A stretch of 64,000 nucleotides of DNA from Acutalibacteraceae bacterium (GCA_045642725.1 JAZUJJ010000105.1:5584-69583); one strand, 5' to 3'; shown: positions 25,556 to 64,000, counted from the first letter of the stretch. A program made the numbers and translations. The notes: generated from the sequence alone by a model not told the origin.

Positions 25556-25627
25556 CATCAGTTACCATATTTCTTTAACAAAGATGTTTAATAAGAGTTG
25601 AGTGGGAATAATACAGTAATATTTTGA

Positions 25628-25660
25628 TTCCTTGTCGGATTGTTCCGACAAGGAATTTTT
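25628..25660 (+). terminator. Rho-independent terminator
   Basis: TTCCTTGTCGGA-TTGT-TCCGACAAGGAA then TTTTT. Confidence 0.85.
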
Positions 25661-25742: not shown

Positions 25743-25771
25743 TTGACATAAATTACTCAATATGATATAGT
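25743..25771 (+). promoter_or_regulatory. Sigma-A promoter of the radical SAM operon
   Basis: TTGACA-17-TATAGT with extended TG. Confidence 0.85.
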
Positions 25772-25830: not shown

Positions 25831-26226
25831 ATGAGGTTCTATTTTGGACTTTGGTGCATTTCAATATTGGCGGTTTTTTCGTCAGTTGTATATTTTACAA
25901 TTTCGTTGCTTAACGGAAATATGCCGAGTGGAAATGTTTGTTATATATTTTTGGCTCAGGTAATTCTATTTTCGGCTTCATGTTATAAAATGAGATTTGC
26001 CGAGGGATATACATTATTTCATTGTGTAATTTTTGTGTTTATTTGTAAATCAAAAGGACTTAAGGTTGATAACTGCCCCAAAAAATATATTCTTGAAACC
26101 GTAATGCCTGAAATAAAAATTTTAGCTTCAAAGTTCTATTTTTCTAAAGATCTGACCGAACTGCAATTATATTCGATGATTAAACGAGGTAACTCATTTA
26201 TCAGAGGAAAAAAGGCAGAGAAATAA
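25831..26226 (+). CDS. Hypothetical membrane protein (131 aa)
   Basis: First ORF after the promoter; hydrophobic N-terminal half. Confidence 0.6.
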   Translation: MRFYFGLWCISILAVFSSVVYFTISLLNGNMPSGNVCYIFLAQVILFSASCYKMRFAEGYTLFHCVIFVFICKSKGLKVDNCPKKYILETVMPEIKILASKFYFSKDLTELQLYSMIKRGNSFIRGKKAEK

Positions 26227-26235
26227 GGTGTTCAG

Positions 26236-27027
26236 TTGATGATATATGAAGTGAAAATACTTATCTCGTTTTTGATTTGTATATTGTTTTTTTCGCTTTA
26301 CGGTAGGAAGTTCGGCTTACCGTTAATACAATCTGCCGTTATTTCTTCTTTGGCCTGTGAAGTTTTGACTGTTGTCGGAGAGGTGTTCTATAATTTCAAT
26401 ATACATGATGAGTATTTATACCGTTTCAATAAATATACTTTGGCAATGATAATTTCAGGCTTACTTGTTGCTGTAACTCAGACATGTATATTAAAATTCA
26501 ATTTATTGCATTCTTTTGATTTCTTTGCACCGCTTCCGCTGTTGATTTATTCAATAGGACATACCGGATGTTATTTCGAGGGATGTTGCCACAGTTTCAA
26601 ATTCAGTGATAATTCGATAATAAATAAACTATTTCCTTTTTTTATAAAAGACGGAATCTTTTTTCAACAACTTCTGGAATGCATTTTTACTTTTATTTTG
26701 TTCTTGATAATAGTTTTACTTACCAGGAAAAAGAAGTATGATTTTGGTGGAAAAATGTTTCCTGTAATGATGATGTTATTCGGATTACATCTTTTTTTGT
26801 GGAACATAATCAGAGATGATGAAAAAATTATTAAAATATGTAAAATTGCCAATGCACAAAGTTCTGAATTCGGAGGGCCCGCTTATTTGGGAATTTCCGA
26901 TACGTCAATAAAGGCAATATTATTCATTATTTTAGGTGTTGTTTTATACATTACGATATTTATATATAATAGCAGCAGAGCCAAGCGGCAAAGAAATGGT
27001 TCCCATGAACAGGAGGGAAAAATTTGA
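26236..27027 (+). CDS. Lgt (prolipoprotein diacylglyceryl transferase)-like membrane protein with degenerate catalytic residues
   Basis: IGHTGCYFEGCC ~ GRxGCFxxGCC; FQQLLE ~ HPTQLYE; FGLHLFLWNIIRDD ~ YGxxRFxxEFFR. Confidence 0.7.
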   Translation: MMIYEVKILISFLICILFFSLYGRKFGLPLIQSAVISSLACEVLTVVGEVFYNFNIHDEYLYRFNKYTLAMIISGLLVAVTQTCILKFNLLHSFDFFAPLPLLIYSIGHTGCYFEGCCHSFKFSDNSIINKLFPFFIKDGIFFQQLLECIFTFILFLIIVLLTRKKKYDFGGKMFPVMMMLFGLHLFLWNIIRDDEKIIKICKIANAQSSEFGGPAYLGISDTSIKAILFIILGVVLYITIFIYNSSRAKRQRNGSHEQEGKI

Positions 27028-28940
27028 AAAATATATATTTTGTACAGGCAAATGTTTTATACGGCAATACTATTTATTTGCCGTATGCTGCAGGAGCAAT
27101 TGCATCTTATGCTTTTCAAAATGAAACGATAAAGGCAGAATATTCACTGAAAAGAATTATTTACTATCGTGAAAATGTTGATGAAGCTTTAGAATCTTTT
27201 GAAGAACCGTTTTTGATTGCATTTTCATGTTACATATGGAATTATGAATATAACAAAGCTCTTGCAAAAAAAGTGAAAGAGAAATGGCCTCACTGTAAAA
27301 TAGTTTTCGGAGGGCATAATGTTTCATCAAATTCACCGGAACTTTTAAATGAGCTTTCTTATGTTGATTTCCTTCTTCATGAAGAAGGAGAGGTGCCTTT
27401 TGAAAGATTACTTCTTACATTGATTGGAAAATACTCTTTTTCTGATGTTCCGAATTTATCATACAGAGATGAATCGGGTTCAATTAAAAAGAATGAGAAC
27501 CAAATATTTGATGTTGCAGATTTTCCGTCACCTTATCAGACAGGTATATTTGATGAAATAATAAACAGTACAGATTTGGTTTTGAACGGTATGTTTGAAA
27601 CAAACAGAGGCTGTCCGTTTGGCTGTGCATTTTGTGATTGGGGTATATATAAATCAAAAGTAAGACAGTTTCCTGAGGAACGAATAAAAAAAGATATAGA
27701 GTGGTTTGTTAAACATAAGATTGAATTTTGTACCTGTGCTGATGCAAATTTTGGTATTCTTGAAAGAGATAAAAAAATTGCCGATTGGATAATTGAGTCA
27801 AAAAAGAAATATGGTTACCCTTCAAAAATACAATTTTGCTATACCAAAGGCAGAAATGATGTGGTTTTTGACCTCAATAAAAGAATGAATGAAGTCGGGC
27901 TCAGTAAAGGAGCAACACTTTCTTTACAGACTTTTTCAAATACTGCATTAAAAAATATAGGCAGAAGTAATCTTTCTTATGAGCAGTTTTGTTCAGAAGT
28001 AAAAAGATATAACGAATCAGATATTCCCACATATACGGAAATAATTCTCGGCATGCCCGGTGAAACCTATGAAAGCTACTGTGAGGGACACAATAAGCTG
28101 TTAAAAGCCGGTCAGCACAATTCAGTTATTGTTTTTAATTGTGAGTTGTTGATGAATTCACGAATGGGTCAACCGGAAACAATAGAGGCATTTAAAATAA
28201 AGAGCTCAAAAACACCGTATAAACAGCATCATTGTGTTCCGCTTAATGATGATGTATGTGAATATTCTCATATTGTAACTTCAACATACAGCATGTCAAC
28301 TGAGGATTGGATTAAATCATGTTTATTTACGGTTTGTGTCGGATGCTTCCATAATCTCGGTTTGCTTCAGTGCTTTGCAATATATATGTATCAGGAACGC
28401 GGAATGGAATATTCTGATTTTTATAAATCACTTTTGTCATGGATATTTTCTGATCCGGATACATTGTGCGGAACGATATTTACAGATATACAGCATAGAT
28501 TGAAGCTTATAAGTGAAGAAAAGGGAGATTGGAAATATGTTAATCCCGTTTTCGGTGAAATAACATGGCCTTATGAAGAAGGCGCTTTCCTGAATATCAT
28601 TTTGGAAAAAGAAAGATTCTATAATGAAATAGTTTCATTTTTGGATTCTCTGAATATTCCCGATAAAATATATGCTGACTTAATTCAGTTTCAAAAGTTT
28701 ACTGTTAAGCATCCAATGCAAAAGAACATAAGATTTGAAACAAATTATAATTTAGCAGATTATTTTGTCAGTGCTTTAAACGGAGAAAAGATCGAATTAA
28801 CAGAAAAGCCAACCGTTTTGACGATGGAGGATAATAATATACCCGAGAAATGGGAAGATTATGCAAGAGAAATGGTTTGGTATGGTAAACGCGGCAGTAA
28901 AATAATAAATATCCGCTCGTTTAATATTTCTTATAAATAA
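27024..28940 (+). CDS. B12-binding radical SAM enzyme, paralogue 1
   Basis: N-terminal B12-binding domain (FSCYIWN, VFGGHN, EEGE) and ETNRGCPFGCAFCDWG; TTG start overlapping the previous stop. Confidence 0.92.
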   Translation: MKNIYFVQANVLYGNTIYLPYAAGAIASYAFQNETIKAEYSLKRIIYYRENVDEALESFEEPFLIAFSCYIWNYEYNKALAKKVKEKWPHCKIVFGGHNVSSNSPELLNELSYVDFLLHEEGEVPFERLLLTLIGKYSFSDVPNLSYRDESGSIKKNENQIFDVADFPSPYQTGIFDEIINSTDLVLNGMFETNRGCPFGCAFCDWGIYKSKVRQFPEERIKKDIEWFVKHKIEFCTCADANFGILERDKKIADWIIESKKKYGYPSKIQFCYTKGRNDVVFDLNKRMNEVGLSKGATLSLQTFSNTALKNIGRSNLSYEQFCSEVKRYNESDIPTYTEIILGMPGETYESYCEGHNKLLKAGQHNSVIVFNCELLMNSRMGQPETIEAFKIKSSKTPYKQHHCVPLNDDVCEYSHIVTSTYSMSTEDWIKSCLFTVCVGCFHNLGLLQCFAIYMYQERGMEYSDFYKSLLSWIFSDPDTLCGTIFTDIQHRLKLISEEKGDWKYVNPVFGEITWPYEEGAFLNIILEKERFYNEIVSFLDSLNIPDKIYADLIQFQKFTVKHPMQKNIRFETNYNLADYFVSALNGEKIELTEKPTVLTMEDNNIPEKWEDYAREMVWYGKRGSKIINIRSFNISYK

Positions 28941-28954
28941 AGATGGTGTGAAAT

Positions 28955-30871
28955 ATGTCCTGTGAAAAAAAGAAAGTATATCTTGTTCAGGTATCTGCTG
29001 CTTTCGGTGGAACAAGCTTTATCCCTTATACGGTAGGGTGCATTGCAGCCTATGCATGGTCAAAGGAAAATATAAAGCAGGATTATTTTCTTCCTGAATT
29101 TATTTATAAAAGAGATGATCTTGAAGAAGTTGTTAATTCTATTTCAGATCCTTTTATTGTGGGATTTTCGACTTATGTTTGGAATTTTGAATACAACTTA
29201 AAGCTTGCCGAAAGAATTAAAAGTGAGTATAAGAATTGTTATATTGTTTTTGGCGGCCATGATATTCCTCTTGACGGTTCAATGCTTAATGAATATCGGT
29301 TTATTGATTTCCTTATGCATGACGAAGGCGAAATTGCATTTGCTGAGCTTTTAACGACTTTAAGTCAGGGCGGAAAAATTGAAAATGTCAGAAACATTTC
29401 ATTCAGGAATTCTGATGGCGTAGTAACCAATCCTATTATCAGTTCAGAAACAATAGATTTTCCTTCTCCTTATTCAAGCGGAATGTTTGACAATCTTGTT
29501 GGGGAAAACGGAAAAGATTTTGTTGCAACATTTGAAACAAATCGCGGATGTCCTTTTAAGTGTGCTTACTGTGATTGGGATACAATAAAGGATGGATTAC
29601 GCCAATTCCCAATGGAAAAAATAAAATCTGAAATTGATTGGATAGCTGAGCATAAAATAGAGTTTACATGGTTGATCGATGGTAATTTCGGAATTCTGCC
29701 AAGAGACGAGGAAATCATTGATTATTTGATAAAGGTAAAAAGTGAAACGGGCTATCCCAAAAGAACGAATCTTTTCTTTACCAAGAATGATCCGGAGCTT
29801 GTTTTCAGACTTAATAATAAGCTTGATAAGGCCGGCTTGAGCAAAGGCGCATGTATTTCTTTTCAGAGTATGTCACCTTCAGTTCTTAAAAACATTGGGC
29901 GTCAGAATATTTCCAATGAAAAGTTCCGTGAGCTTATGACGATGTATAATAAGAATAATATTCCGACTTTTTCTGAAATAATCGTTGGGCTGCCGGGAGA
30001 AACCTATGAGAGCTTTTGCGATGGTATAGGTCAGCTTCTTGAAGCCGGGCAGCATTATTCGTTTTATGTTTATCCATGTGAATTACTGAAAAATTCAATT
30101 ATGGCTCAGCCGGAATACCTTAATCAGTTCGGTATAAAATATGTTATAACTGCTCTGAACCAACATCACCGTGAAGTGCCTAAGGATGGTATAGAAGAGT
30201 ATTCACGGATTGTTGTCGGAACAAATTCAATGACACCGAATATGTGGGTCAAATCGTGCTTGTTCGGAATCTGCGTAAGAACTTTTCATAGTCTTGGATT
30301 ACTTCAATATTTTGCTTTGTATCTTCGCCATGAAAAAGATATTGCTTATGTAAGCTTTTATAATGATCTTCTTGAATGGATGCTGAATAACAGAGAAAGT
30401 GTTTGCGGTAAAGTTTTTAATGATTTGAAAGACAGGTACGAGAAAATTATCAGTGGTTCAGGTTCTTTTTTATATGCGTTTCCGAAATACGGTGATGTGG
30501 TTTGGCCATTTGAAGAAGGAGCTTTTCTGGAAATAATTTCTGATTTCGATTTGTTTTTTGATGAAATAAAAAGCTTTTTATCAAAATATGATATTGATGA
30601 CGGCATCAGGTGTGAATTACTTGAATATCAGAAAAGTATGATAAAAATTCCGGCCAAGAAATCTTTTTCACTTAAATTGAATTATGATTTTCCGACATTT
30701 GTCAGAAAGATTCTGACAAATGAAGCTGATTCATTGCAGCAAAAAAATACAGTTGTTTCTTTTACCGGTTCCGACATACCGAAAGATTGGGAGACTTTTG
30801 CAAGAGAAGTTGTATGGTATGGACGAAAGGGCGGAAAAACTTTACTTGAAACCGAGGTAAGCATTTCTTGA
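28955..30871 (+). CDS. B12-binding radical SAM enzyme, paralogue 2
   Basis: FSTYVWN, VFGGHD, DEGE; ETNRGCPFKCAYCDWD. Confidence 0.92.
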   Translation: MSCEKKKVYLVQVSAAFGGTSFIPYTVGCIAAYAWSKENIKQDYFLPEFIYKRDDLEEVVNSISDPFIVGFSTYVWNFEYNLKLAERIKSEYKNCYIVFGGHDIPLDGSMLNEYRFIDFLMHDEGEIAFAELLTTLSQGGKIENVRNISFRNSDGVVTNPIISSETIDFPSPYSSGMFDNLVGENGKDFVATFETNRGCPFKCAYCDWDTIKDGLRQFPMEKIKSEIDWIAEHKIEFTWLIDGNFGILPRDEEIIDYLIKVKSETGYPKRTNLFFTKNDPELVFRLNNKLDKAGLSKGACISFQSMSPSVLKNIGRQNISNEKFRELMTMYNKNNIPTFSEIIVGLPGETYESFCDGIGQLLEAGQHYSFYVYPCELLKNSIMAQPEYLNQFGIKYVITALNQHHREVPKDGIEEYSRIVVGTNSMTPNMWVKSCLFGICVRTFHSLGLLQYFALYLRHEKDIAYVSFYNDLLEWMLNNRESVCGKVFNDLKDRYEKIISGSGSFLYAFPKYGDVVWPFEEGAFLEIISDFDLFFDEIKSFLSKYDIDDGIRCELLEYQKSMIKIPAKKSFSLKLNYDFPTFVRKILTNEADSLQQKNTVVSFTGSDIPKDWETFAREVVWYGRKGGKTLLETEVSIS

Positions 30872-31632
30872 AAAAGTCATTTTATGACATCAGTAATTTG
30901 TATTCAGAATTCAAATCAGTATCTGTTGTTATTTGCATTACTGATGAAACCGATAGCTTAAGAACAAATCTTGATAAACTTATTTTGTCATGTAATGCGG
31001 AGGATTTGGTTCAGATTTTACTTTGTACTCATGAAAGGACTGCTGTTCAGACAATAAAAATTGCAGAGGAATACAAGCAGAGATATCCTTTTGTTGAAAT
31101 ATATTCACAGCAAATCAAATCATCAGGTTATATTTTACTTAAAGAGACATTGCCTCTTGTTAAAGGAACTCATGTAATATATGCTGCGGCAGATAATGCT
31201 ACAGATTTATCTGTGGTTGGTGAGTTTGTTTCAAAGCAAAAAGAAAATTCAAATTGTGTTCCCTGCGTTTCGAGATGGATAAACGGAGGAAAATTAGTTG
31301 GATACGGGTTCATTCGCAAATTACTGAGCCATCTTTTTCAGCGTTTTATCTCTGTGCTGTATAACAATAAGTACACAGAATTTTCTTTTCCTTATCAGAT
31401 TGCTTCGGTCAGATTATATGACGCTTTGATTTTAAATGAAAACGGTGTGTTTTCATTTTTTGAAGCCAAAATGAAAATGCTGAAACTGAATGTTGCCTTT
31501 TCAGAACTGCCAATGACATGGCGTGACAGAACAGACGGAAGAAAACATTTCAGACCATTGAGGGTCTTGGCTTATTTCAGAATTGCTTTTAAAGTTCGGT
31601 TTATGAAAATGAAAGAGTGTATTAATATTTAA
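30868..31632 (+). CDS. GT2 glycosyltransferase, polyprenol-phosphate (DPM-synthase-like) type
   Basis: GTHVIYAAADNATD, SRWINGG, ELPMTWRDRTDG; the DxD motif is degenerate. Confidence 0.75.
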   Translation: MKKSFYDISNLYSEFKSVSVVICITDETDSLRTNLDKLILSCNAEDLVQILLCTHERTAVQTIKIAEEYKQRYPFVEIYSQQIKSSGYILLKETLPLVKGTHVIYAAADNATDLSVVGEFVSKQKENSNCVPCVSRWINGGKLVGYGFIRKLLSHLFQRFISVLYNNKYTEFSFPYQIASVRLYDALILNENGVFSFFEAKMKMLKLNVAFSELPMTWRDRTDGRKHFRPLRVLAYFRIAFKVRFMKMKECINI

Positions 31633-31649
31633 CAAAGAAGGGAATTGAA

Positions 31650-33569
31650 ATGAAAAAGGTTTATTTTGTTCAACCGGGCAATTGCATCGGGAATAATGTG
31701 TATTTACCATATTCTGTTGGTTCAATAGCTGCGTATGCTTGGAGTAACGAGTCAATAAAAGAAACTTATGAACTGGCTGATTTGCTTTTTCTTTTTGAAG
31801 ATATCGACAAGCAGATTCAGTCAATGGATTCTCCTTTTCTGGTCGGCTTTTCCTGCTATATCTGGAATTATGAATATATTTTAAGGTTTGCAGAAAAATT
31901 AAAGAAAGCATATCCGGAATGTTATATTCTTTTTGGCGGACACAATGTTAATTCTTATAATGCAAAACAGTTAGAAGAATTTCCGTTTGTTGATTTTTTA
32001 ATTCATGATGAAGGTGAAATACCGTTCCGCGATTTGCTTCTTGCATTAAAAAACGGTACTGATTTTTCAAAAATAACTAATTTTTCATACAGAGATCAAA
32101 ACGGAAACATATGCAAAAACGAATCCGTAATATATGATGTCGATGATCTTCCTTCCCCTTACAGTATGGGGATCTTTGATAAAATAATGAAAAATTATGA
32201 TTATAATTTTTCTGTTATACTTGAAACTAACAGAGGCTGTCCTTATGGCTGCTCATACTGTGACTGGGGAATATACAAGTCAAAGATCCGCTGCTTCCCG
32301 TTGGAAAGGGTGTATTCCGATCTTCAATGGTTTTCCGATAACAAGATAGACTATTGCCTGTGCTCCGATGCGAATTTCGGTATCATAAAAAGAGATATGG
32401 AAATCGCAGAAAAGCTTATTGAAATCAGGAACAAATCGGGATTTCCCAATAAAGTTAATTTCTGCACTGCCAAGAGCGGAGAAAACTTCGTGTATGAAAT
32501 CAGCAAAAAGCTTAATGATGCAGGTGTTTTGAAAAGCGCTTCTTTATCAATACAGACACTTAATCCTGATGCATTAAAAAATATCGGACGCACAAATTTC
32601 ACAAAAGAGAAATTTCAGGAAATGGATCAGATGTACAGGAAAGTCGGAGTTTCAACTCTTGCAGAGCTTATACTCGGACTGCCCGGCGAAACGTTGAAAA
32701 GCTTTTGCGAAAATATCTGTTTGTTTTTTGAGGTTGGACATCATATACCCATCAGCGTATATAATTGCCAGCTTTTGATGAATTCAAAAATGTCTCAACC
32801 CGATTATATAAAACGGCACGGAATCAAATCGGTAAAAATGCCGCTCTCATTTCATACCAACAAAGAGGAACAGGACAAATATCCGGAATACATTGATATT
32901 GTTATTGAAACAAATACGCTTAGTAAAGAGGATTGGGTTTCGGCAAATTTGTTTTATTTTCTCACCTATGCTTTTCACGGAATGGGATTGATGCAATTTT
33001 TTGCCCAATATATACATTATGAGCTTAATGTATCATACTATGATTTTTATTCAAAGCTGTATGAATATGTTTTTGAAAATAAGAATACGGTTGCCTTTTC
33101 AGTCTTTAATAAAATACGAAATATTCATTTAGAACTGCTTCAGGGAAAAGGATCATATGGATGCGAATTGGATTGGGCCGGCGATGTAATATGGCCGTTT
33201 ACGGAATTTGCATATTTAAGTATTGCTCATGATAAAGATTTGTTTTACGAGGAAATGAAACCGTTTTTAAAACAATTCAACATTAAAGATGATATATTTG
33301 AGGAACTGTTTCTTTATCAGAAGAGTATGGTTAAATATCCGGGCCTGAAGGGATTTGAAATAAATCTGAAAAAAGATTGGCATACATATTTTTGCCACAT
33401 TTTTGATAATGTTTATATTCCTTTACCGGAATTGGAAAATGTTTTGACTGTTTCGTGTCCTAATACTCCTGATGATTGGAAAACATTTTCAAGAGATATG
33501 GTTTGGTATGGCAGACGCGAAAGAAGAATGCTTTGTGTAAATCAAGCAGTTGTTAAATATATTTATTAA
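31650..33569 (+). CDS. B12-binding radical SAM enzyme, paralogue 3
   Basis: FSCYIWN, LFGGHN, DEGE; ETNRGCPYGCSYCDWG. Confidence 0.92.
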   Translation: MKKVYFVQPGNCIGNNVYLPYSVGSIAAYAWSNESIKETYELADLLFLFEDIDKQIQSMDSPFLVGFSCYIWNYEYILRFAEKLKKAYPECYILFGGHNVNSYNAKQLEEFPFVDFLIHDEGEIPFRDLLLALKNGTDFSKITNFSYRDQNGNICKNESVIYDVDDLPSPYSMGIFDKIMKNYDYNFSVILETNRGCPYGCSYCDWGIYKSKIRCFPLERVYSDLQWFSDNKIDYCLCSDANFGIIKRDMEIAEKLIEIRNKSGFPNKVNFCTAKSGENFVYEISKKLNDAGVLKSASLSIQTLNPDALKNIGRTNFTKEKFQEMDQMYRKVGVSTLAELILGLPGETLKSFCENICLFFEVGHHIPISVYNCQLLMNSKMSQPDYIKRHGIKSVKMPLSFHTNKEEQDKYPEYIDIVIETNTLSKEDWVSANLFYFLTYAFHGMGLMQFFAQYIHYELNVSYYDFYSKLYEYVFENKNTVAFSVFNKIRNIHLELLQGKGSYGCELDWAGDVIWPFTEFAYLSIAHDKDLFYEEMKPFLKQFNIKDDIFEELFLYQKSMVKYPGLKGFEINLKKDWHTYFCHIFDNVYIPLPELENVLTVSCPNTPDDWKTFSRDMVWYGRRERRMLCVNQAVVKYIY

Positions 33570-33585
33570 GCTATAAGGAGATGAG

Positions 33586-36069
33586 ATGCGCTTGAAGTTT
33601 TGGGATTATATTATACTTACCGCTGCAAATAATAACCAAGCTGAAGCTTTCAGGCAGCATCTTATTTCTAAACAGAGAGATGGTCAGATAGACGATGCAA
33701 CATGTTGCATCGTCATTTCTGATGGTGACAGAAGTATTGGTTCGGGATGCGCTTTCCTTAAGGCTTTAGAAGAAATATATTGCATTGAAGGCACTCATGT
33801 ATTCCCAAAGGATAAAAAAATACTTTTAATAAATTCGGGGGGGGAAAGCAGAAGAATACCTCAGTATTCTGTTTGCGGTAAGGCCTTCGCTCCGTGGCCA
33901 TTTGATAATTGTGATTTTTTTGATAAAATTTTAGAATCATTCAATCATTTGACATCTTTTTTTGATGGTGGAATGATTATATCCACAAGCGATATCCTTT
34001 TGGATACAAATATTGATTTCCATTTTTTGTATAATAACACGGCTTTTGCTGTTAAAACCGTTGCTGAAAATGGTGTTAACCACGGAGTGTTTAAATGTGA
34101 AGGCTCAAAGGTGATTGATTTTTTACATAAAAAGCCGATAGATGTTCTGAAAAATCAAGGTGCTGTTAATTCGGCGGGAGAAGTATTATTAGATACAGGA
34201 GCTGTTTATTTTACACCGACTTGTTTGGAACGAATATACAACACATTATGCTGCCATAAAAAAATAAATACGGAATTTGCAGATGTTAAATTAAATTTTT
34301 ACAGTGATTTTTTGTATCCGTTGGCAACTAAAGGAAATTTGAATGATTATTTAAGTCAGTCCGGGGAGACAGAAGTAAATGATCGCTTGATTCAAGCAAG
34401 GGGAAAAATATACGATTGTCTCTTTAATCAGGAAGAATTGTTCGTTAACATCTTGCCTGATCAGAGATTTATTCATATCGGAACTACAAAAGAAGTACTT
34501 GAATTGTTCACAGATTTGAATGGTTATAAATCCTATAACAGCATTATCGATTCTAAAGCTGAAATAGGTAAAGGAACATACATTGAAAATTGTATTATAA
34601 GGAACGGCTGTTCAATCGGTAACAACTGTTTTATTTCCTCCGCAGAACTTGCTGATGTCAATATTCCCGATAATACCGTTGTCCATTGCATCAGATTGAA
34701 CAACCGGAAATATACGGCAAGAGTTTTTTCTGTTGACGGATTTGATAAAACTCGTGATTTTTGGAGTAAAAAGCAGTACGGGGTTTACGATTCACGTTTG
34801 GAGGCTGTCAAGGCATCTTTGAAAGGAATAAATGGTTGTGTCAGTTTAGAATCAGGCTTTTCGGATGCGGATTTTACAGAACCGTTTGAATGGAAAAGTT
34901 GGATTGCATTTTTATCCGATTTTAATTCATATGAAAAAATCAGTAATCAGATAGTAAAAAATACTATAAAAAAAATAGATTATTCAGAGCGTGTTGCCCT
35001 GAATAAAAGCACTTCAGTATGCAGATTACCGGTCAGAATAAATTTTGGAGGAACTTGGTCGGATGCAGCTCCTTATTGTATTGATTTTGGAGGAGCTGTT
35101 TTGAATGCGACTGTGTCTATTGATGGTAATCTGCCTATAAGCGCAGCAGTAAAAAGAATAAATAAAGATCGTATTATTTTACGCTGCGAAGATATGAATT
35201 CAGAGCATTCGTTTTTTGATGTTCAAAGCTTGACGGATTTTAGTAATGTGAATGATGTTTTTGCTTTGCATAAGGCAGCTTTGGTTGTAAGTGGTATAAT
35301 TCCTTTATCAGCAAAATGCAACATGAATGAGATACTGAAAAAACTCGGAGGAGGATTTGTGCTGTCAACTTGTGCTGAAAATCTTCCAAAGGGATCTGGA
35401 TTGGGAACGAGCAGTCTTTTATTAAGTGCCGCTATAAAAGCATTGTATGATATTACCGGAAGGGAGTTAAGCGAAAAAGCACTCTTTGAAAAAGTTTTTT
35501 GTGCTGAGCAATTAATGAAAACCGGTGGCGGTTGGCAAGACCAGGTTGGTGGCTTTATTAATGGATTTAAATTGATTACCACAGATAAAGGAATAGATCA
35601 AAATATAAAATACGAATTATTTAAACCCAGCGAACAGATCCTGAATTTATTAAAGCATAAAGCGGTTTTAATTTACACCGGAGAACGTTTTTATGGCAGA
35701 TTTATTCTCAGCGATATTATGAAAAGATGTTCTTACGGTGATGGAGAAACTTTAGAAACAATATGTGAATTAAAAAAGCTTGCATTATTTGAAAGGGAAG
35801 TATTTGAAAACGGTAATGCTGAAATGTTTATCAACTGTATAAACAGGCATTCGGAATTATTGAAAAAGCTTTCCGGCAAAATTGAAAATGAATCGTATCA
35901 AAAAATTACAAACAAATTTTCCGAATTGATTGAATGTTGTTGCATTTGCGGTGCCGGAGGAGGAGGATTTGCATTTTCAATATTAAAAAAAGATGTTGAA
36001 CGTGAATGGTTTATTGAAATGGCCCATAAAAATAATATTAAGATATACAAACCGGAATTTATTCTGTAA
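33586..36069 (+). CDS. fkp: Bifunctional L-fucokinase / fucose-1-phosphate guanylyltransferase-like protein
   Basis: LLINSGGESRRIPQYSVCGKAF, NHGVF, LDTG, FIHIGTT (pyrophosphorylase); LPVRINFGGTWSD, PKGSGLGTSS, TGGGWQDQ, CGAGGGGF (GHMP kinase). Confidence 0.85.
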   Translation: MRLKFWDYIILTAANNNQAEAFRQHLISKQRDGQIDDATCCIVISDGDRSIGSGCAFLKALEEIYCIEGTHVFPKDKKILLINSGGESRRIPQYSVCGKAFAPWPFDNCDFFDKILESFNHLTSFFDGGMIISTSDILLDTNIDFHFLYNNTAFAVKTVAENGVNHGVFKCEGSKVIDFLHKKPIDVLKNQGAVNSAGEVLLDTGAVYFTPTCLERIYNTLCCHKKINTEFADVKLNFYSDFLYPLATKGNLNDYLSQSGETEVNDRLIQARGKIYDCLFNQEELFVNILPDQRFIHIGTTKEVLELFTDLNGYKSYNSIIDSKAEIGKGTYIENCIIRNGCSIGNNCFISSAELADVNIPDNTVVHCIRLNNRKYTARVFSVDGFDKTRDFWSKKQYGVYDSRLEAVKASLKGINGCVSLESGFSDADFTEPFEWKSWIAFLSDFNSYEKISNQIVKNTIKKIDYSERVALNKSTSVCRLPVRINFGGTWSDAAPYCIDFGGAVLNATVSIDGNLPISAAVKRINKDRIILRCEDMNSEHSFFDVQSLTDFSNVNDVFALHKAALVVSGIIPLSAKCNMNEILKKLGGGFVLSTCAENLPKGSGLGTSSLLLSAAIKALYDITGRELSEKALFEKVFCAEQLMKTGGGWQDQVGGFINGFKLITTDKGIDQNIKYELFKPSEQILNLLKHKAVLIYTGERFYGRFILSDIMKRCSYGDGETLETICELKKLALFEREVFENGNAEMFINCINRHSELLKKLSGKIENESYQKITNKFSELIECCCICGAGGGGFAFSILKKDVEREWFIEMAHKNNIKIYKPEFIL

Positions 36070-62772: not shown

Positions 62773-64000
62773 TTCTTCGCATATCGGGTCACGATTTCCA
62801 CTATGAGTGTGAAAATCTGTGCAGAGTTTTCTTCCCCAATGAAAAAATAAATATTGTTTATGACGGCTCCGGAGAAGACCCGGTCACGGTCGTGACGGAA
62901 TATTCCGTAGGCAGAGCCTGCGTTTCGGCAGAGATAAACGGCGAAAAAAAGGCACTTGAGCGGGAATGTGATGACGAAAGTGCAGAGCTTACCGTTGCAA
63001 AGCTCATCTTTTCTGCTCTTTCGGAGCTTACGGGCTATGTTCCCCCCTGGGGCGTGCTTACGGGCGTAAGGCCCTCAAAGCTCATGCTTCGTCTTATTGC
63101 GGATATGGGCGAGGAAGAGGCCGTTAAGTATTTTACCGACGACCTTCTTGTAAGCAGGGCTAAGACCGAGCTTGCCGTGACCGTTGCAAAGGCAGAGCAG
63201 GAAATAGTCGCTTCCTCAAAGCCGGAGTCATTCAGCCTTTATGTTTCAATTCCTTTTTGCCCGTCAAGATGCAGCTATTGCTCATTCGTGAGCCATTCCA
63301 TTGCCAACTCCAACGCCAAAAAGCTTTTCCCCGAGTACATAGAAAAGCTTGCCGAGGAGCTTGAATATACGGGCAGAATAGCAAAGGAAACGGGGCTGCG
63401 CCTTGAAAGCATTTATTTCGGCGGCGGCACTCCCGGTGTGCTGGAGGCTTCGCAGCTTGATATGCTCCAGTGTACCATTGAAAAGAGCTTTGACCTTTCC
63501 AATCTCAGGGAATATACCGTTGAAATGGGCCGGCCGGACACCGTTACACCTGAAAAGCTCCGTGTTCTCAAGCTTCACAATACAGACAGAATAAGCATAA
63601 ATCCCCAGACCTTCAATCAGAAGACTCTTGATGAGGTCGGCAGAAAGCATACGGTTGACCAGGCTATTGAGGCTTACCGCCTTGCAAGGTCATACGGCTT
63701 CAAGTGCATAAATATGGATTTGATAGCGGGCCTGCCGGGAGAGAAATTTGAAGATTTCCGTGACAGCCTTGATACTGCGGTGTCGCTTTCGCCCGAAAAT
63801 ATTACGGTTCATTCCCTCGCTCTTAAGCGTTCATCCACGCTCAGCTATGAGGGAGCGGAGGTTGCCGACGGCAACGAAGCGAAAAAAATGCTGGATTATG
63901 CTCTTGACAAACTCACTTCTTCCGAGTATTCTCCTTATTACATGTACCGCCAGAGCAAATGCGTCGGAAATCTCGAAAATGTGGGCTGGTGCAGAAACGG
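62769..64000 (+). CDS. hemZ: HemZ-type radical SAM protein (partial; runs off the window)
   Basis: GTG 62769; PPWGVLTGVRPSK, LYVSIPFCPSRCSYCSF, YFGGGTP; typical rel-dtd-MBL-hemZ synteny. Confidence 0.88.
   Translation, partial: MILRISGHDFHYECENLCRVFFPNEKINIVYDGSGEDPVTVVTEYSVGRACVSAEINGEKKALERECDDESAELTVAKLIFSALSELTGYVPPWGVLTGVRPSKLMLRLIADMGEEEAVKYFTDDLLVSRAKTELAVTVAKAEQEIVASSKPESFSLYVSIPFCPSRCSYCSFVSHSIANSNAKKLFPEYIEKLAEELEYTGRIAKETGLRLESIYFGGGTPGVLEASQLDMLQCTIEKSFDLSNLREYTVEMGRPDTVTPEKLRVLKLHNTDRISINPQTFNQKTLDEVGRKHTVDQAIEAYRLARSYGFKCINMDLIAGLPGEKFEDFRDSLDTAVSLSPENITVHSLALKRSSTLSYEGAEVADGNEAKKMLDYALDKLTSSEYSPYYMYRQSKCVGNLENVGWCRN

Follow-up and report, generated by a model that had tools for sequence, protein, structure and literature searches.

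A 64,000-nt stretch of DNA from Acutalibacteraceae bacterium (GCA_045642725.1 JAZUJJ010000105.1:5584-69583; the window) was analysed around three paralogous radical S-adenosylmethionine (SAM) enzymes encoded at 27024-33569. Within the class B radical SAM methylases the three fall in the TokK/CysS structural subclass; neither TokK nor ThnK is orthologous to them, and they lie outside the NCBI KedN5 family. They are very probably TokK-type, cobalamin (B12)-dependent methylases, and the three paralogues are likely to have distinct jobs. A nucleotide- or lipid-linked sugar is on balance their probable substrate. The whole picture, serial or regiospecific C-methylation of a guanosine diphosphate (GDP)- or polyprenyl-phosphate-linked sugar bound for the envelope, is given slightly better than an even chance.

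Three enzymes of the TokK/CysS subclass

The three open reading frames (ORFs), of 638, 638 and 639 aa, were intact on the + strand and colinear end to end, as the first-pass annotation of the window had read them. ORF calls and alignment agreed on this: apart from an N-terminal offset of 4 residues and two gaps of one residue each, the proteins aligned throughout. Pairwise identities among the paralogues were 44, 42 and 41%, 147 columns were invariant in all three, and paralogue-versus-paralogue E values (1e-176 to 1e-192) were far beyond chance. The motifs picked out at first pass (CX3CX2C, ETNRGCP, D(A/G)NFGI, PGET and the WYG tail) were all located in each paralogue. The cluster motif reads CPFGCAFC in paralogue 1 (197-204), CPFKCAYC in paralogue 2 (199-206) and CPYGCSYC in paralogue 3 (197-204). 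Its cysteines (C197/C201/C204 in paralogues 1 and 3, C199/C203/C206 in paralogue 2) were invariant in 51 of 51 family members. Three of the earlier statements needed amendment, one of them, on GGHD, being treated with the orthologues below. A shared tail had been written WYG(K/R)R; the WYG is shared, and the consensus is really WYG[KR][KR] (WYGKR, WYGRK, WYGRR), paralogue 2 having WYGRK. The matching lengths were correct but are not specific to the trio, near-equal length being typical of the family at large (median 641 aa and interquartile range 637-644 for 213 full-length members). The ORFs and their motifs were placed as follows.

27024-28940, + strand: paralogue 1, 638 aa, TTG start, TokK-like, tree clade S
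27231-27245, + strand: W72 motif of paralogue 1
27612-27644, + strand: CX3CX2C-DWG of paralogue 1
28140-28142, + strand: Cys373 codon of paralogue 1
28878-28892, + strand: WYGKR of paralogue 1
28955-30871, + strand: paralogue 2, 638 aa, tree clade H
29549-29581, + strand: CX3CX2C-DWD of paralogue 2
30077-30079, + strand: Cys375 codon of paralogue 2
30815-30829, + strand: WYGRK of paralogue 2
31650-33569, + strand: paralogue 3, 639 aa, tree clade T
32238-32270, + strand: CX3CX2C-DWG of paralogue 3
32766-32768, + strand: Cys373 codon of paralogue 3
33504-33518, + strand: WYGRR of paralogue 3

PF04055 (Radical_SAM) matched all three proteins at 47-61 bits. PF02310 (B12-binding) scored 37.5 bits in paralogue 1 and 32.7 bits in paralogue 3, above the 32.1-bit cut-off; paralogue 2, at 28.8 bits, fell just below it, yet its alignment was colinear. 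The fold, an N-terminal Rossmann-type B12-binding domain with a radical SAM core, resembles the cobalamin (Cbl) domains of TokK, CysS, OxsB and TsrM. Among solved structures TokK was the top sequence match (E 2.5e-86 with the single sequence; 7.7e-147 with a 51-sequence family profile, over residues 4-582 of 639) and CysS the second (profile E 1.9e-85). An AlphaFold2 model was built for paralogue 1 only, on the 51-sequence family alignment, with a predicted local distance difference test (pLDDT) score of 92.9 and a predicted template modelling score (pTM) of 0.92. Foldseek aligned this model to TokK (7kdx) with a template modelling (TM) score of 0.91 query-normalised and 0.88 target-normalised, a root mean square deviation (rmsd) of 3.0 Å and 29% identity over 676 aligned columns. 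CysS gave a TM score of 0.77, and OxsB and TsrM ~0.5. The overlay on TokK spanned all three domains, including the C-terminal one, which the TokK authors describe as unique (bioRxiv 10.1101/2021.07.10.451909).

Two tryptophans are common to TokK, ThnK and CysS and absent from other class B methylases. One lies below the cobalt (TokK W76, CysS W75) and the other beside cobalamin and substrate (TokK W215, CysS W206) (bioRxiv 10.1101/2021.07.10.451909; PMC12667779); TokK W215 is catalytically important (bioRxiv 10.1101/2021.07.10.451909). In the hidden Markov model (HMM) alignment to TokK, W76 corresponded to W72, kept in 50 of 51 family members, and W215 to W206, kept in 51 of 51. From the B12 domain and W72, the trio is predicted to bind cobalamin. 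In TokK, R280 binds the carbapenam C3 carboxylate, and R280Q nearly abolishes activity (bioRxiv 10.1101/2021.07.10.451909); in CysS, W271 is a gate and hydrogen-bonding residue (PMC12667779). Both fall at family position 270, where paralogue 1 has Q and the other two have N (by clade: Q, N and N/C).

Of the NCBIfam models, NF033712 (KedN5, methylcobalamin-dependent C-methyltransferases) scored best against each paralogue (E 1e-62 to 1e-74), and the top-ranking models were methyltransferase families. The KedN5 scores were 240.7, 210.1 and 248.3 bits against a cut-off of 700 bits, with model positions ~3-430 of 624 matched. The likeness to TokK/ThnK/KedN5-type enzymes suggested at first pass was confirmed by the searches, and the interpretation built on it is partly supported. 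TokK and then CysS are best by both sequence and fold, KedN5 is the best NCBIfam model, and the Trp pair is kept; the scores stay below the KedN5 cut-off, R280 is missing, and no carbapenem or nonribosomal peptide synthetase/polyketide synthase (NRPS/PKS) cluster is present. Because R280 is replaced by Q/N/N and the KedN5 scores are so far below cut-off, the trio is assigned to another family, and its substrate, judged from sequence, must differ from that of TokK.

The position of TokK Leu383, a residue of the active-site wall, is occupied by Cys in 48 of 51 family members (Cys373, Cys375 and Cys373 in paralogues 1, 2 and 3); neither TokK nor CysS has Cys there. For the WYG tail and TokK Tyr652, the HMM alignment to TokK ended at residue 582/609, and a profile of the last 94 residues had no match in TokK.

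Orthology and a probable division of labour

At least 3,349 sequence clusters matched the family at E <1e-10. Among the matches listed, nearly all were 636-645 aa and came from Clostridia metagenome-assembled genomes (MAGs), unnamed or labelled 'radical SAM protein'. A scan of species-representative genomes yielded at least 445 encoding loci, nearly all in gut and rumen MAGs of Acutalibacteraceae/Oscillospirales. The window's genus had 14 positives among 24 other species, with 3-8 copies each, and no copy was present in 16 genomes taken from the order's remaining families. A literature search returned no paper on the ~640-aa family or on B12 radical SAM enzymes in GDP-sugar/polyprenyl contexts. 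Eighty-five loci (L numbers below) were fetched and their ORFs called and clustered, giving 253 family members at 1-8 per locus. A maximum-likelihood tree was calculated from 216 full-length members.

In L008, L009 and L023 every window paralogue was matched by a single orthologue per locus, and each of the three clades had a support of 1.0 (L008 lies on the same contig as L004). Orthologues of paralogue 1 in these loci were 61-67% identical to it. The L023 gene order (radical SAM, radical SAM, GT2, radical SAM, Fkp) was identical to that of the window, at identities of 67/65/39/52/44%; in L008 and L009 the three radical SAM genes were contiguous, in the same S-H-T clade order. The clades of paralogues 1 and 3 were sisters (support 0.994), grouped with the single-copy clade O, T being sister of S+O. 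Paralogue 2 (clade H) fell in a different deep superclade. Paralogue 3 was the fastest evolving, with 49-52% identity to its own orthologues. Other cassette types also had fixed, ordered clade sets: B-A-E(-M), F-D-C, I-X-Y-Q-J-J and C-N-K-R-U.

Eighteen positions were fixed inside each of the three orthologue groups and differed among groups. Of these, 203, 207, 235, 238 and 272 map to the three strands of the radical SAM core that line the substrate cavity of CysS and TokK. The clade-fixed substitutions of paralogue 2 were G207D, C238L, C272F and Y337F. CDWD and GGHD had been noted at first pass as peculiar to paralogue 2. Both were read again in its sequence; CDWD (G207D) is fixed in 4 of 4 orthologues, and GGHD varies (D/N/D/D). 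Proportions of nonsynonymous differences (pN) among the paralogues were 0.22-0.34, against proportions of synonymous differences (pS) of at least 0.74 (0.74-0.85). Synonymous sites were saturated, so the statement on selection is limited to pN << pS.

The earlier suggestion of three distinct jobs is supported by the 1:1:1 orthology, the fixed gene order and the clade-fixed cavity substitutions. Because the clade-fixed differences sit on substrate-cavity strands, the jobs of the paralogues are expected to differ. The same three observations, with the retention of all cofactor motifs, argue for three old, non-interchangeable and catalytically live enzymes, and would be compatible with sequential, regiospecific or complexed action. 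Several specialised paralogues may mean one methylation per enzyme rather than iteration.

Operon layout and recurrent partner genes

The trio is housed in a 10.2-kb low-GC stretch (25831-36069; 34% GC versus 46% in the rest of the window) of seven same-strand genes, in the order 131-aa protein, Lgt-like, paralogue 1, paralogue 2, GT2, paralogue 3 and Fkp-like. Features of the operon besides the radical SAM genes were as follows.

25626-25657, + strand: intrinsic-terminator-like hairpin, 14-bp stem and T run, ending the upstream rlmD-associated defence cassette
25743-25771, + strand: promoter-like site TTGACA-17-TATAGT with TG (11/12, consensus match only)
25831-26226, + strand: operon gene 1, 131-aa protein with one N-terminal hydrophobic segment (simple hydropathy scan)
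26236-27027, + strand: Lgt-like membrane protein (fold family of prolipoprotein diacylglyceryl transferase), 263 aa, ~6 transmembrane segments, Pfam LGT E 1.4e-8
30868-31632, + strand: soluble GT2, 254 aa, DPMS/ArnC/GtrB-like catalytic domain by family profile
33586-36069, + strand: Fkp-like bifunctional enzyme, 827 aa, N-terminal fucose-1-phosphate guanylyltransferase-type domain and C-terminal GHMP sugar-1-kinase domain

The hairpin forms the left boundary of the low-GC operon. The promoter-like site, the one counted for the operon, is the region's best such match and lies 60 nt 5' of the first gene. Genes overlap by 4 nt at two junctions (Lgt-like/paralogue 1 and paralogue 2/GT2), and the remaining gaps are 10-17 nt. 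Co-transcription of the seven genes as one operon is the best reading of this predicted layout. Maturation of a ribosomally synthesised and post-translationally modified peptide was rejected: with gaps of 10-17 nt or overlaps there is no space for a precursor peptide, and peptide-pathway genes are absent. Family searches with the 131-aa protein gave no match.

GC content at third codon positions was 26-33% in the operon. The best in-genus identity to paralogue 1 was only 48%, and the 61-67% orthologues came from MAGs labelled just Acutalibacteraceae or Ruminococcaceae bacterium. Low GC and closer orthologues in MAGs that carry no genus label suggest horizontal acquisition or a hypervariable surface-glycan locus. 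To see whether the island is an insertion, the surroundings of the EEP gene found downstream were compared with those of its orthologues in four congeners; no further flanking gene was syntenic, and no empty site was definable. The 6.5-kb stretch of the trio was partly present in gut-metagenome assemblies from five studies; one search across all run kinds gave no RNA-labelled run with this stretch among the matches listed. At the right end of the window, the family radical SAM core weakly matched 63258-63770 (tblastn, E 7e-6 to 5e-5, 25-40% identity); the gene there presumably encodes an unrelated enzyme of the radical SAM type.

With the window GT2 as first row, the GT2 family profile (A3) matched dolichol-phosphate mannose synthase (DPMS, 5mlz; E 1.7e-34), ArnC (E 2.5e-23) and GtrB (E 1e-18). 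These three are polyprenyl-phosphate sugar synthases. D109 was invariant in the GT2 family, whose members are ~250 aa versus 322-374 aa for ArnC and DPMS; a simple hydropathy scan of the 254-aa window protein found no hydrophobic segment, i.e. no C-terminal transmembrane or interface helices. The Fkp-like protein matched PF07959 (E 2.2e-59), GHMP_kinases_N and Bacteroides fragilis FKP (5yys, E 1.2e-46), and scored 294 bits with NCBIfam PRK13412, for which the equivalog cut-off is 721 bits. The Lgt-like protein fills the slot taken in sister cassettes by the polytopic proteins c2_412 and c7_355. A word search of 5.8e9 proteins returned no homologue of it except its own fragment, and weak matches occurred in 1 of 150 family genomes. 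A split c2_412, made up of the 131-aa and Lgt-like proteins (131 + 263 = 394 aa, near the length of c2_412), was considered and discarded (hhalign probability 0.3%). The c2_412 and 343-aa proteins of L023 had no tblastn match in the window.

Across the 85 loci the recurrent partners were GT2 (54), the ~400-aa polytopic c2_412 (36), Fkp-like proteins (24) and a ~350-aa polytopic protein (at least 13). The commonest cassette was c2_412, c7_355, GT2 and Fkp, followed by three to five radical SAM genes. The cassette of clade O, the single-copy sister clade of paralogue 1, consisted of GT2, an NTP-transferase, a GDP-mannose 4,6-dehydratase (E 1e-138), the radical SAM enzyme and a 605-aa membrane protein. 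An alternative supply cassette comprised a GHMP kinase, an FdtA-like cupin and an NTP-transferase-HAD fusion, a set that by its domains resembles GDP-heptose synthesis. Sugar supply appears interchangeable among cassettes, and all three routes are predicted to yield GDP-sugars, the donor type of DPMS-like enzymes. Bare two-gene modules of GT2 followed by one radical SAM gene, flanked by opposite-strand genes, were seen in L069 (GT2 of 241 aa, radical SAM enzyme of 643 aa), L071 and L079. A GT2 plus one methylase is suggested to be the basic functional unit.

The model of c2_412 had a pLDDT of 89.6, and its best fold matches, all non-significant (E 0.18-1.5), were DPY19, ALG9, EmbB and AftB, GT-C enzymes that use polyprenyl-phosphate sugars. 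No Pfam, NCBIfam or PDB match was obtained for c2_412, c7_355 or c22. The last of these (L010 4626-6443, L005 19964-21847) is a 605-627-aa protein with 11-12 transmembrane segments and a soluble C-terminal domain; its first-loop motif DDES(W/F)YL (DDESxY) is reminiscent of GT-C glycosyltransferases.

Several loci had features of their own. L005 (304-19814), L015, L016, L018, L034 and L050 hold up to seven TokK-like ~640-aa enzymes with a single GT2 each, and L005, L015, L034 and L050 additionally contain two to four ~495-aa B12 radical SAM enzymes. Arrays of the L005 type are among the densest clusters of B12 radical SAM genes in the loci surveyed. In L068 (8716-11354) and L083 the radical SAM array encloses genes for a 507-aa amine-oxidase-like flavoprotein and a 365-aa protein with a 2Fe-2S domain, possible dedicated electron donors. 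Some arrays adjoin sortase and LCP genes. In one species only, that of L004/L008, the S-H-T cassette is immediately preceded by NRPS-like genes of the AMP-binding, condensation and PP-binding kinds (L004, 329-3514).

Proposed pathway, alternatives and known systems

The analysis establishes the subclass, fold and cofactor motifs of the enzymes, their orthology, the layout of the operon and its recurrent partner genes. Combining enzyme class and gene content, we infer the scheme below, including methylation as the reaction, the sugar as substrate, the sequence of steps and the ultimate acceptor. The Fkp-like enzyme would turn a free 6-deoxyhexose-type sugar into its GDP derivative, and the GT2 would transfer the sugar to polyprenyl phosphate at the inner membrane face. 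The Lgt-like protein is possibly the membrane partner of the soluble GT2, and it may tether this enzyme and the methylases to the membrane. Each radical SAM enzyme, like TokK, would reductively cleave SAM at its [4Fe-4S] cluster to give a 5'-deoxyadenosyl radical, which would take a hydrogen atom from the sugar, linked to GDP or polyprenyl phosphate, at an unactivated sp3 carbon. The substrate radical would then receive a methyl group from methylcobalamin, and a second SAM would re-methylate cob(I)alamin. Each enzyme could act on its own carbon, or in its own round of a methyl to ethyl to isopropyl type extension, three methyls being added in all. The methylated sugar is envisaged to end on an envelope polymer. 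TokK and CysS bind pantetheinylated substrates in a channel made by the Cbl and C-terminal domains (bioRxiv 10.1101/2021.07.10.451909; PMC12667779). The polyprenyl-phosphate sugar would be the more attractive substrate, as its long tail could fill the channel that holds pantetheine in these enzymes.

The genome encodes five proteins with a B12-binding domain, three of them in the operon, and its 97.5%-complete assembly had no match to CobS (PF02654). With CobS absent and five B12-binding proteins encoded, the organism, on the evidence of its gene content, probably relies on imported corrinoids.

Several observations weigh against C-methylation of a lipid- or nucleotide-linked sugar. Both solved relatives, TokK and CysS, use pantetheinylated non-sugar substrates, and some class B enzymes (OxsB, BchE) are not methylases. 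The near-invariant Cys at the TokK L383 position could point to chemistry beyond plain methyl transfer. No member of the ~640-aa family with a known substrate or product was met in the literature search. Of the 43 loci whose sequence extends 4 kb or more to either side, 19 had no GT2 inside 4 kb, and 10 of the 19 are of the F-D-C/DUF218 type. The window GT2 alone had no Pfam match, and its DxD position reads AAD. The c2_412 membrane partner was absent from the window and from the whole genome, and the Lgt-like protein that replaces it is, on present sequence matches, an orphan.

The best surviving alternative, which we nevertheless regard as improbable, is a diffusible small molecule as the product of the cluster, be it a glycolipid or a glycosylated natural product. 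The radical SAM enzymes would then act, as TokK and CysS do, on an aglycone tethered to pantetheine or a carrier, and the sugar genes would only decorate it. The pantetheinylated substrates of both TokK and CysS fit this idea, as do the NRPS-like genes directly upstream of the orthologous L004/L008 cassette and the resemblance of a low-GC, patchily distributed island to a secondary-metabolite cluster. However, carrier-protein, adenylation, PKS, NRPS and terpene genes are all absent from the window operon, the NRPS-like genes accompany only 1 of 4 S-H-T cassettes, and what stays constant over the 85 loci is the company of GT2, polytopic membrane proteins and genes that supply GDP-sugars.

We give little weight to a single hetero-oligomeric enzyme that performs one transformation, with the copies serving as structural partners and not as individual catalysts. 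Such an assembly would account for the co-transcription, the equal size and the fact that four species have strictly inherited the three clades together. But the cluster motif, both Trp and the SAM/Cbl motifs are kept in all three proteins, none of which looks like a degenerate scaffold; array size ranges from 1 to 8, single-copy modules exist, and the fixed differences lie in the substrate cavity, away from any obvious interface.

It is about equally improbable that these are class B enzymes with non-methyl chemistry on a sugar (epimerisation, dehydration, ring contraction or C-C rearrangement), in which cobalamin or the conserved Cys has another role. Radical SAM sugar and peptide epimerases employ Cys as a hydrogen-atom donor, which gives the Cys found in 48 of 51 members a precedent, and OxsB, BchE and AprD4-type precedents appear lower among the matches. 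Against this, the nearest relatives by far are two iterative methylases (TM scores of 0.91 and 0.77 versus ~0.5 for OxsB/TsrM), the Trp pair specific to TokK/ThnK/CysS is conserved, and the top NCBIfam matches are methyltransferases. Redundant, recently diversifying duplicates without division of labour, which the copy number of 0 to 8 among congeners (14 of 24 other species positive) might suggest, are highly improbable given paralogues just 41-44% identical with saturated synonymous sites, a triplication older than four species with 1:1:1 orthology and conserved order, and the placement of paralogue 2 in a different deep superclade.

Sugar C-methylation is kept as the preferred reading. More tentatively, the loci might form a modular system for radical C-alkylation of surface sugars in Acutalibacteraceae and relatives, in which GT2 loads a GDP-derived 6-deoxyhexose or heptose on polyprenyl phosphate, an ordered series of one to eight TokK-like enzymes, each having a cavity of its own, adds C-methyl, ethyl or isopropyl branches to the lipid-linked sugar, and a GT-C-like or, in the window, Lgt-like protein exports the product. 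If so, these bacteria would carry an undescribed class of hyper-C-alkylated envelope sugars, a strain-variable combinatorial code, and the TokK/CysS subclass would have its first carbohydrate substrate. A sugar substrate would in itself mean new carbohydrate chemistry, radical C-alkylation of envelope sugars, and would offer biocatalysis a set of naturally orthogonal B12 methylases, each regiospecific. Bacterial surface structure would moreover be linked to the supply of corrinoid in the gut, because the genome appears unable to complete cobalamin synthesis. The fixed clade sets (S-H-T, B-A-E-M and others) provide a comparative framework for assigning positions and steps.

Among known systems, TokK/ThnK (carbapenem C6 alkylation in Streptomyces; 7kdx/7kdy) is the closest, with three domains in common (TM score 0.89-0.91, rmsd 3.0-3.6 Å, 28-29% identity) and shared CX3CX2C-DW, ETNRGCP, DANFG and LGLP(G/M)ET blocks. 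The trio differs in the replacement of R280 by Q/N/N and of L383 by a near-invariant Cys, and in a WYG tail that has no sequence counterpart in TokK. TokK and ThnK belong to a carbapenem cluster with one iterative enzyme, whereas three to eight paralogues stand together here, with GDP-sugar, GT2 and membrane-protein genes in a Clostridia gut MAG. CysS (cystobactamid alkoxy extension; 9n1b-d) is similar at TM scores of 0.75-0.77 and shares the lower-axial and active-site Trp, but its substrate is a pantetheinyl/peptidyl-carrier-protein-bound aminobenzoate of an NRPS pathway (PMC12667779). The KedN5 model (NF033712) covers about the first 380-440 residues of the trio; the C-terminal third is unmatched, and the three are not members. 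The trio thus shares fold, cofactor motifs and Trp pair with TokK/CysS and departs from them in the substrate anchor, Cys373, WYG tail, multi-paralogue use and carbohydrate/polyprenyl context. To our knowledge, just two members of the subclass have solved structures, both from antibiotic pathways.

Class B C-methylases that act on nucleotide-linked or sugar substrates include Fom3, GenK and GenD1. Fom3 methylates CMP-linked hydroxyethylphosphonate, and GenK and GenD1 a sugar, which sets a precedent for methylation at sp3 carbon; a nucleotidylyltransferase supplies the handle, as the Fkp-like enzyme would here. All three are single-copy enzymes of antibiotic pathways. They were absent among the matches obtained for the trio, and the model of a related family, the PhpK P-methyltransferases, reached only E 1e-14 to 1e-17.

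In the GtrB/CsbB-GT-C and Ppm1/Ppm2 systems, a DPMS-type GT2 and one or more polytopic partners bring a lipid-linked monosaccharide to envelope polymers. Mycobacterial Ppm1 is soluble and held by Ppm2, a membrane protein related to the lipoprotein-processing Lnt; the soluble GT2 beside an Lgt-like protein would be a similar arrangement. We know of no polyprenyl-phosphate sugar system of the GtrB/Ppm kind that includes radical SAM methylases. In the gut and rumen Clostridia the TokK/CysS fold forms a very large unnamed family tied to genes for sugar nucleotides and polyprenyl-phosphate glycosyl transfer.

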